Positions 17,182 through 18,600 of a stretch of 64,000 nucleotides of DNA are shown one piece after another. The DNA comes from Escherichia phage Mizar. Under the pieces are notes generated by a model. That model was given only the letters and a program-made list of their open reading frames with translations, was not told where the DNA came from and made no database searches. The stretch is taken from sequence record PV714129.1; one strand, written 5' to 3'. Each line of letters starts with the position of its first letter. Within the stretch, counting starts at the first letter, position 1. A program made the translations under genes and the position numbers.

Positions 17182-18600
17182 TTATGGATATGTATAGATG
17201 ATACCAGTTTCCAAAGCAGTTTTATGGATGATGTATCCATTACGTGATTCTTGAACATCAACTTCTGGATAGTCTTCCATCATCTTCTGAAGAGTGTAAC
17301 GATGCAGGTAGTATTTACTATCTGGATCTTCAGTTTTCCAATCTTTACCTTCTTCAGTCATTTTTTGGATTTCATCCATAACCCACCAACCGCACCAGAT
17401 GTAAGCTGAAGTACGATGTGGAAGAGGATGAACATAAGGTAATTCACCTTCTGGTTCTGGAGCAACTTTATCGGTTACCTGAACTTGACCTTCTGCTGTA
17501 ATAGTTTTGCTATCATAGTCATCTGCAGTAACGATGGCAGTCACTTCAATAGTTTGACTTCCAACAGATGAAGTATCAACGGTATATACATTAGTTGACC
17601 CTTCTACAGGAGAAGAATCTTTCTTCCATGAATATTCAATTTGCGCTTCTTCTGGAGCATCAGTGACATTAGCGGTAAATGTAGCTGAAGCATCTTGCTG
17701 AACGTTAATAGAAGGAGGAGTCAATGTAACCTGTGGATTCATTGACTTCTTATTAACCGTTAATGATACTTCATTAGAAGTAACTTCCTTTTCATTGTAA
17801 TTTTCAGCAGTTACTTGGGCTACGCATTTAATTCTTTTTACTCCACTTGTAGTTGGAGTATAATTAAATGTAGAGTTAGTTTCTCCACCAACTTGTGAAT
17901 CATCTACATACCACTGATACGTAGCAGACGCTCCAGCCGGTTGAGAAGCTAAGGCAGCAGTAAATTGAACTGGGGTTCCAATTACTCCAGCTGAAGGACT
18001 ATCAGGAGTTACTGCCAAGGTAGTTGTCTGTGTCTTTTTATTAACAGTCAGTGATACTTCATTAGAAGTAACTTCTTTTGTGTCATAGTCTGTTGCCGTC
18101 ACTTGGGCTACACATTTAATTTTTTTAACTCCGCTTGTGGTAGGAGTGTAATTGAATGTAGCAGAAGTTGCTTCGCTCACAGGAGAACCGTCAACGTGCC
18201 ATTGATACGTAGCAGATGCGCCTGACGGTTGAGAAGCTAAAGCCGCAGTAAATTTAACAGCTGTTCCGATTACTCCAGCAGCAGGGCTATCAGGAGTTAT
18301 AGCCAGAGTAGTTGTCTGAGTTTTATTTTTAACTGTGATAGTTGCAGTAGTTTCTGCTGTTTCAGCTTCAGCTTCTGGAACTGTATTTGTTGCAACTACT
18401 TTAATAGTCTTTTGACCGGCAGGTCCTTTTAGTACATAACTAAAAGTTGCTTCAGCTCCATCTTGCGGAACACCATCCAAAGTCCAAGCATATGTAATAG
18501 TTCCACCTTCAGCCTGACCACTAGGTGTGGCAGTAAACTGCTGGGTCTGTCCTATAACTCCAGTAGGTGTTTTAGGATTTATATTAACTGTAAAAGCCAT
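17182..18600 (-). CDS. hoc: highly immunogenic outer capsid protein Hoc, 472 aa, with four Ig-like domains
   Basis: Repeated ~95-aa Ig-like modules with recurring YxW..D and KxIKCVAQVTA motifs; C-terminal region (AYIWCGWWVMDEIQKM...) typical of the capsid-binding domain; position between rnlB and inh. Confidence 0.9.
   Translation of the reverse strand: MAFTVNINPKTPTGVIGQTQQFTATPSGQAEGGTITYAWTLDGVPQDGAEATFSYVLKGPAGQKTIKVVATNTVPEAEAETAETTATITVKNKTQTTTLAITPDSPAAGVIGTAVKFTAALASQPSGASATYQWHVDGSPVSEATSATFNYTPTTSGVKKIKCVAQVTATDYDTKEVTSNEVSLTVNKKTQTTTLAVTPDSPSAGVIGTPVQFTAALASQPAGASATYQWYVDDSQVGGETNSTFNYTPTTSGVKRIKCVAQVTAENYNEKEVTSNEVSLTVNKKSMNPQVTLTPPSINVQQDASATFTANVTDAPEEAQIEYSWKKDSSPVEGSTNVYTVDTSSVGSQTIEVTAIVTADDYDSKTITAEGQVQVTDKVAPEPEGELPYVHPLPHRTSAYIWCGWWVMDEIQKMTEEGKDWKTEDPDSKYYLHRYTLQKMMEDYPEVDVQESRNGYIIHKTALETGIIYTYP
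17749..18324 (-). repeat. in-frame tandem direct duplication (2 x 288 bp) inside hoc encoding two adjacent Ig-like domains
   Basis: Protein residues 93-188 and 189-284 are each 96 aa and roughly four-fifths identical; the two DNA units are visibly alignable. Confidence 0.85.

Follow-up and report, generated by a model that had tools for sequence, protein, structure and literature searches.

T4-like phages are proposed to adhere to mucus through Hoc, which is also in wide use as a display platform. On the minus strand of a 64,000-nt stretch of DNA from Escherichia phage Mizar (sequence record PV714129.1), which we refer to as the window, a Hoc gene was noted whose product has 472 residues, and an initial annotation of the sequence had claimed that two neighbouring Ig-like domains in it are copies of each other. 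The locus therefore raises the question of whether hoc contains a true in-frame tandem duplication of a domain and, if so, whether the duplication is a recent accident of one phage or an established allele. Our reading, to which we assign a probability of roughly 0.88 as a whole, is that the window protein is a four-Ig Hoc, that its two modules of the domain 2 (D2) type, A and B, form an old and constrained pair, and that a polymorphism of one, two or three such modules is widespread among related phages.

The sequence places the window among the RB69-like T4-type phages (Mosigvirus); of the sequenced phages, Escherichia phage FP43 is nearest to it, with 98.5% identity over 25 kb and 99.1% in hoc. 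The comparison of the window protein with T4 Hoc (NP_049793; PDB 5vf3, 8t1x) by phmmer gave E = 4.4e-215 for chain 5vf3_Z, which has 376 aa and corresponds to the 1131-nt hoc gene of NC_000866. The gene position is common to T4 and the window, with inh upstream and 24.3-, 24.2- and rnlB-like genes downstream, and the gene order around hoc agrees with the annotations of T4, moskry, FP43, RB68 and LH01. The phmmer alignment showed that residues 377-472 are near-identical to 5vf3_Z; this part is homologous to T4 Hoc 281-376, the domain whose structure on the capsid has been solved, and includes the Glu-Ser-Arg-Asn-Gly (ESRNG) loop at residues 451-455, for which a description is given in PMC10385173. 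The N-terminal part is a string of Ig-like domains according to Pfam, a module HMM, an AlphaFold model and Foldseek. These results indicate that the window protein has all the testable defining features of Hoc, and the near-identity of the binding domain suggests monomeric binding to the centre of gp23 hexamers on the expanded capsid.

The genes flanking hoc (15511-17092 and 18610-20843) keep the T4 order. They comprise an rnlB-like RNA ligase 2 gene at 15511-16518, two small ORFs at 16638-17092 matching the positions of 24.2 and 24.3 (DUF2774), inh at 18610-19278, and a helicase gene at 19329-20843 on the plus strand, which is labelled uvsW in one related phage record. A Shine-Dalgarno-like motif precedes hoc, and a hairpin beyond its stop codon is a terminator candidate (see the table). 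Positions 17000-19400 hold no minus-strand match to the late-promoter sequence TATAAATA, and the consensus scan found sigma-70-like sites only at chance frequency; hoc was left without a promoter assignment.

Table. Coordinates of hoc, its predicted domains and adjacent signals in the window.
Feature	Position	Strand	Basis and remarks
hoc, 472 aa + stop codon	17182-18600	minus	ORF list; phmmer against T4 Hoc; gene order
Ig-like domain 1 (D1), aa 1-92	18325-18600	minus	Aligns to T4 Hoc 1-92; module HMM weak, 31.9 bits; beta-sandwich pLDDT 85-93
Copy A, D2-type Ig-like module, aa 93-188; type missing in T4	18037-18324	minus	Repeat searches; Pfam BiPBP_C, Ig_2, PKD
Copy B, D2-type Ig-like module, aa 189-284; counterpart of T4 Hoc domain 2 (T4 aa 93-188)	17749-18036	minus	Repeat searches; best Pfam PKD stretch 195-267
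Last Ig-like domain (D3), aa 285-378; counterpart of T4 Hoc domain 3	17467-17748	minus	T4 aa 189-282; Pfam Ig_3, I-set 289-373; module HMM 287-378; strands pLDDT ~90
C-terminal capsid-binding domain, aa 379-472; ESRNG at aa 451-455	17185-17466	minus	Near-identical to T4 Hoc 283-376; AlphaFold confidence low
Shine-Dalgarno-like AAGGA	18607-18611	minus	Read from sequence; 6 nt upstream of hoc ATG, overlaps inh stop codon
Terminator-like G+C-rich hairpin + T run (candidate)	17160-17177	minus	Consensus scan; starts 5 nt past hoc stop codon

Self-comparison of the gene bore out the duplication. A repeat search found two 288-nt copies, 17743-18030 and 18031-18318, at a spacing of 288 and with 78% identity, and Tandem Repeats Finder reported a period of 288, 2.0 copies, 79% matches and a score of 725 over 17746-18333. 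In codon register the two units fill 17749-18324, and the residues that they encode, 93-188 and 189-284, had been described as about four-fifths identical, which agrees with the count of 78 identical amino acids out of 96 (81%) and 225 identical nucleotides out of 288 (78%), aligned without a gap. Ungapped 78% identity across 288 nt is far beyond chance. Between A and B, first codon positions are identical at 81 of 96 codons, second positions at 88 of 96 and third positions at 56 of 96. The units are equal in length, each encodes one structural domain as in an in-frame tandem domain duplication, and the predicted strand pattern is almost identical in the two. We also considered a hidden overlapping gene and rejected it, as the ORF list holds no other ORF of at least 60 aa over the repeat on either strand.

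In the alignment with T4 Hoc, residues 1-113 of the window protein matched T4 residues 1-113 and residues 189-472 matched T4 residues 93-376, indicating that the window protein is T4 Hoc plus exactly one 96-aa module. The difference between 472 and 376 aa, to which the initial annotation had drawn attention, is this module, a D2-type copy (A) in addition to the domains of T4. We applied an HMM made from the two modules to the proteins of different length and found three Ig-like domains in the 376-aa form, four in the 472-aa form and five in the 568-aa form. Together with the T4 alignment, these counts uphold the proposal that four Ig-like domains precede the capsid-binding C-terminal domain in the window protein, compared with three in T4 Hoc.

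Pfam searches of the window Hoc gave PKD, Ig_2, Ig_3 and I-set matches. The AlphaFold model, for which the input was a 37-sequence alignment, had a mean pLDDT of 83.6, with four predicted beta-sandwich domains at about 90 within residues 1-378 and a poor C-terminal domain; its pTM was 0.54, and the inter-domain geometry of the model is unreliable. The best Foldseek matches of the model were four-Ig fragments of Dscam1 and ICAM-5. The crystal structure of RB49 Hoc (PDB 3SHS) was found neither by the PDB sequence search nor among the top 50 Foldseek matches, so that the Ig assignment rests on Pfam, the model and these generic multi-Ig matches. In our reading, hoc encodes a fibre of D1, A, B and D3 in series, followed by the conserved C-terminal domain, which attaches it to the centre of each hexamer of the major capsid protein.

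By the Nei-Gojobori method, A and B differ with dS 1.10, dN 0.107 and omega 0.10, whereas dS is 0.19 between copy B and the single module of T4 and 0.37 between D1 and D3 plus C-terminus of the window and those of T4. The A/B split is therefore several-fold older than the divergence of the window and T4 alleles. Thirteen of the 18 amino acid differences between A and B fall outside the predicted strands, which make up 56% of the module. These results show that A and B are both old and that purifying selection has maintained both. The units do not look like a recent or unstable copy-number repeat, being only 78% identical with dS 1.10; variation in copy number was observed between phages. Across phages, first copies are 88% identical to one another at the protein level and second copies 82-86%, compared with 78-79% between first and second copies. 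Same-position copies are thus closer than neighbours, and A and B correspond by position across phages.

The same data bear on the suspicion that this phage alone acquired the duplication, and recently, or that assembly of a repeated region produced it as an artefact. Short-read assemblers can miscount tandem repeats of a few hundred bases, and the initial annotation rested on one genome. However, the copies differ at 63 of 288 nucleotides and their dS is near saturation, so they are distinguishable and old; hundreds of phages sequenced independently carry the two-module gene; and each copy is nearer to the same-position copy elsewhere than to its neighbour. Copy divergence, dS and positional correspondence rule this explanation out, and we regard its probability as practically nil.

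A megablast search with hoc found 658 phage records in GenBank, and the census was based on 60 of these, evenly spaced, and on the top 120 protein clusters. Among the 60 sampled records, the gene was about 1419-1425 bp long in 22, about 1131 bp in 23 and 1704 bp in one, the remainder being partial matches only. From this sample, the two-module gene of about 1419 bp is present in about a third of the 658 records. The comparison of Hoc lengths in protein databases gave the corresponding classes: 81 of the best 120 protein clusters had 376-379 aa, 30 had 468-472 aa and 9 had 567-570 aa, and the classes of 376, 472 and 568 aa carry one, two and three D2-type modules, respectively. The 472-aa clusters have from tens to 167 members each, several of them 58-167. 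The FP43 Hoc (MN648445, QGT55399.1) is encoded by the same 1419-bp two-module gene with point differences only, and the 472-aa Hocs of slur02, Yersinia phage PST, Shigella phage SHFML-11 and moskry contain the same two modules at 92-94% DNA identity. The two-module hoc is an old and common allele, not peculiar to phage Mizar.

Several database records of these genes carry annotations of their own. That of moskry marks the repeat as a repeat_region. The gene is misnamed 'baseplate wedge subunit' in FP43, 'endonuclease [Shigella sonnei]' in P0016 and 'anti-TA protein alt3' in Klebsiella phage Roth66, and many Hoc proteins are filed as Escherichia coli or Shigella sonnei, presumably as phage sequence within bacterial assemblies.

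Comparison of single-module alleles with the window showed that the modules of T4, HY126, RB68, LH01 and SHSML-52-1 are of the B type, with 91-93% DNA identity to B and 77-80% to A; between copy A and the T4 module it is 77%. The single module of TH12 is of the A type (94% to A, 80% to B at the DNA level), in a gene whose D1 is 98% and whose D3 and C-terminal domain are 99% identical to the window. The best single breakpoint in TH12, at module nucleotides 241-242, left 21 mismatches, compared with 27 if B had been cleanly lost and 69 if A had been lost. An A-type head joined to a B-type tail is the expectation for in-register unequal crossover, to which TH12 points with modest strength. LH01 has a D1 that is 98% identical to the window and a B-type module; its hybrid signature is weak, consisting of three sites that are polymorphic in other B-type modules too. 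Over 25 kb, the genomes of LH01, SHSML-52-1, p000v and HY126 match the window at about 98% identity, with matched spans about 290-300 bp shorter, indicating that module copy number varies among phages of one species-level group. The alleles of one, two and three modules and the single-module alleles of near relatives support the suggestion that recombination can expand or contract the repeat.

In these Mosigvirus relatives, whose overall identity is about 98%, hoc is mosaic towards its 5' end: D1 is 98% identical to the window in LH01 and TH12 and 81-82% in HY126 and SHSML-52-1, and the 3' half stays 93-99% identical. The protein diagnostic sites of single-module alleles, with 3-7 usable columns, showed both head/tail orders, suggesting that mosaic exchange blurs module history. 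Among longer alleles, the 568-aa Hocs of Escherichia phages UGKSEcP1 and UGKSEcP2 have D1, D3 and the C-terminal domain like those of the window and three D2-type modules, that is, five Ig-like domains. The 567-aa Hoc of Escherichia phage CCU7 (PV806175; 601-2304 of its extracted locus) also has three D2-type modules. Its residues 1-189, covering D1 and A, are identical to the window, but after the border of module A it continues, unlike the window, with divergent cassettes, namely two D2-type modules and a D3 that all differ from those of the window, and identity is regained in the C-terminal domain. This switch at a module border suggests that hoc is a mosaic of domain cassettes.

In our reading, A and B are both paralogous to domain 2 of T4 Hoc, which is present there once and is of the B type. 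The simplest explanations of the polymorphism are two: unequal homologous recombination in register between the 288-nt units, which would remove or add one unit and leave the reading frame intact, and an exchange of hoc segments by co-infecting phages, with breakpoints at module borders. We infer that several single-module alleles descend from the two-module form, although the change may have been either a loss in T4-like alleles or a gain in that of the window.

The pair may instead have been made by one unequal recombination between diverged A-type and B-type single-module alleles of co-infecting phages, in which case the T4 form would be the ancestor and the A/B split would be as old as the divergence of the alleles. 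Single-module alleles of both types exist, as TH12 on the one side and T4, HY126, RB68, LH01 and SHSML-52-1 on the other illustrate; both A-like and B-like central loops occur among the 81 single-module protein clusters; and the mosaic structure of hoc is plain to see, its breakpoints falling at module borders. However, for a single copy to be duplicated for the first time, an exchange must occur out of register and with little homology, a rarer event than deletion in register between repeats that are 78% identical. TH12 and LH01 share the window D1 at 98%, the result expected if a two-module parent had lost a different module in each case. Klebsiella-phage Hoc Ig domains scored 11-34 bits against A and B, compared with at least 170 bits between A-type and B-type modules, and none is close to A or B, which places the split within the T4/RB69-type lineage, however it arose. 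Taken together, we consider the joining of two alleles improbable and prefer descent of several single-module alleles from a two-module parent.

The wider family shows similar changes in domain number. According to Fokine et al. 2023 (PMC10385173), Hoc homologues combine a conserved C-terminal anchor with 1-10 variable Ig-like domains, and the supplement of that paper lists 650 homologues. Hoc relatives in IMG/VR had 279-472 aa and two to four Ig-like domains. Self-BLASTP searches for internal repeats in distant Hocs returned the main diagonal only, and an offset-identity scan, used in their place, found a duplication in the 471-aa Hoc of Klebsiella phage Marfa (MN044033; 1501-2910 of its extracted locus). 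This Hoc, about 48% identical to that of the window, likewise has an in-frame tandem duplication of a single module, but of its third Ig domain and not the second (81% amino acid identity between the copies), and many Klebsiella-phage relatives have the 377-aa form without it. The Marfa duplication is evidently independent of the D2 duplication, and the two together suggest that module duplication and loss are a recurrent mode of Hoc evolution. The natural Hoc of phage PNJ-9 (PMC11853027) is without domain 3.

With respect to function, the T4 Hoc fibre is 18 nm long (PMC10385173), and an extra module would lengthen it by about one Ig domain, or about 4 nm. The 472-aa Hoc may form a longer fibre with altered reach or avidity, and the extra module may add a loop-variant surface for glycan binding or antigenicity. 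Individual Hoc Ig domains have been linked to MUC2 and fucose binding, and the natural Hoc without domain 3 is functional and still binds MUC2 via domain 2 (PMC11853027); this published work concerns forms of Hoc other than the four-Ig allele.

A less favourable view of the extra module, possible but rather doubtful in our judgement, is that it is a neutral spacer, that length drifts without a fitness effect and that the constraint on the copies reflects domain folding only. Hoc is dispensable for phage growth in the laboratory (PMC3012670), and very similar genomes carry alleles of one, two or three modules, each at appreciable frequency, as they would under weak selection on length. However, omega of 0.10 over dS above 1 indicates that both copies have been maintained long-term and are not decaying, the differences between A and B concentrate in loops, and Hoc Ig domains are tied to mucin binding (PMC11853027). 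These points speak against neutrality, and none is decisive for length as such.

The four-Ig allele is already public in hundreds of GenBank genomes, and the variable number of Ig-like domains in Hoc is published. We found no explicit account of D2 tandem duplication or copy-number polymorphism in T4/RB69 relatives in the open-access literature, and the accessible parts of PMC10385173 and PMC11853027 describe neither a tandem D2 duplication nor a polymorphism of one, two and three copies in these phages. The missing account is a gap in commentary and not a new kind of object, and the allele itself counts for little as a discovery.

A more far-reaching proposal is that the three-Ig Hoc of T4 is a derived, shortened form of a four-Ig ancestor and that selection acts on module number, which switches recurrently. 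We put it forward as speculation, with the odds clearly against it. If it were true, module number would tune the adhesive reach of the capsid into mucus or its recognition by antibodies, and Klebsiella phages, with duplications of separate origin, would be cases of convergence. The natural three-, four- and five-Ig alleles, carried on capsids that are otherwise near-identical, could provide a ready-made series for tests of whether mucin binding, aggregation or immunogenicity depends on the length of the fibre or the number of domains.
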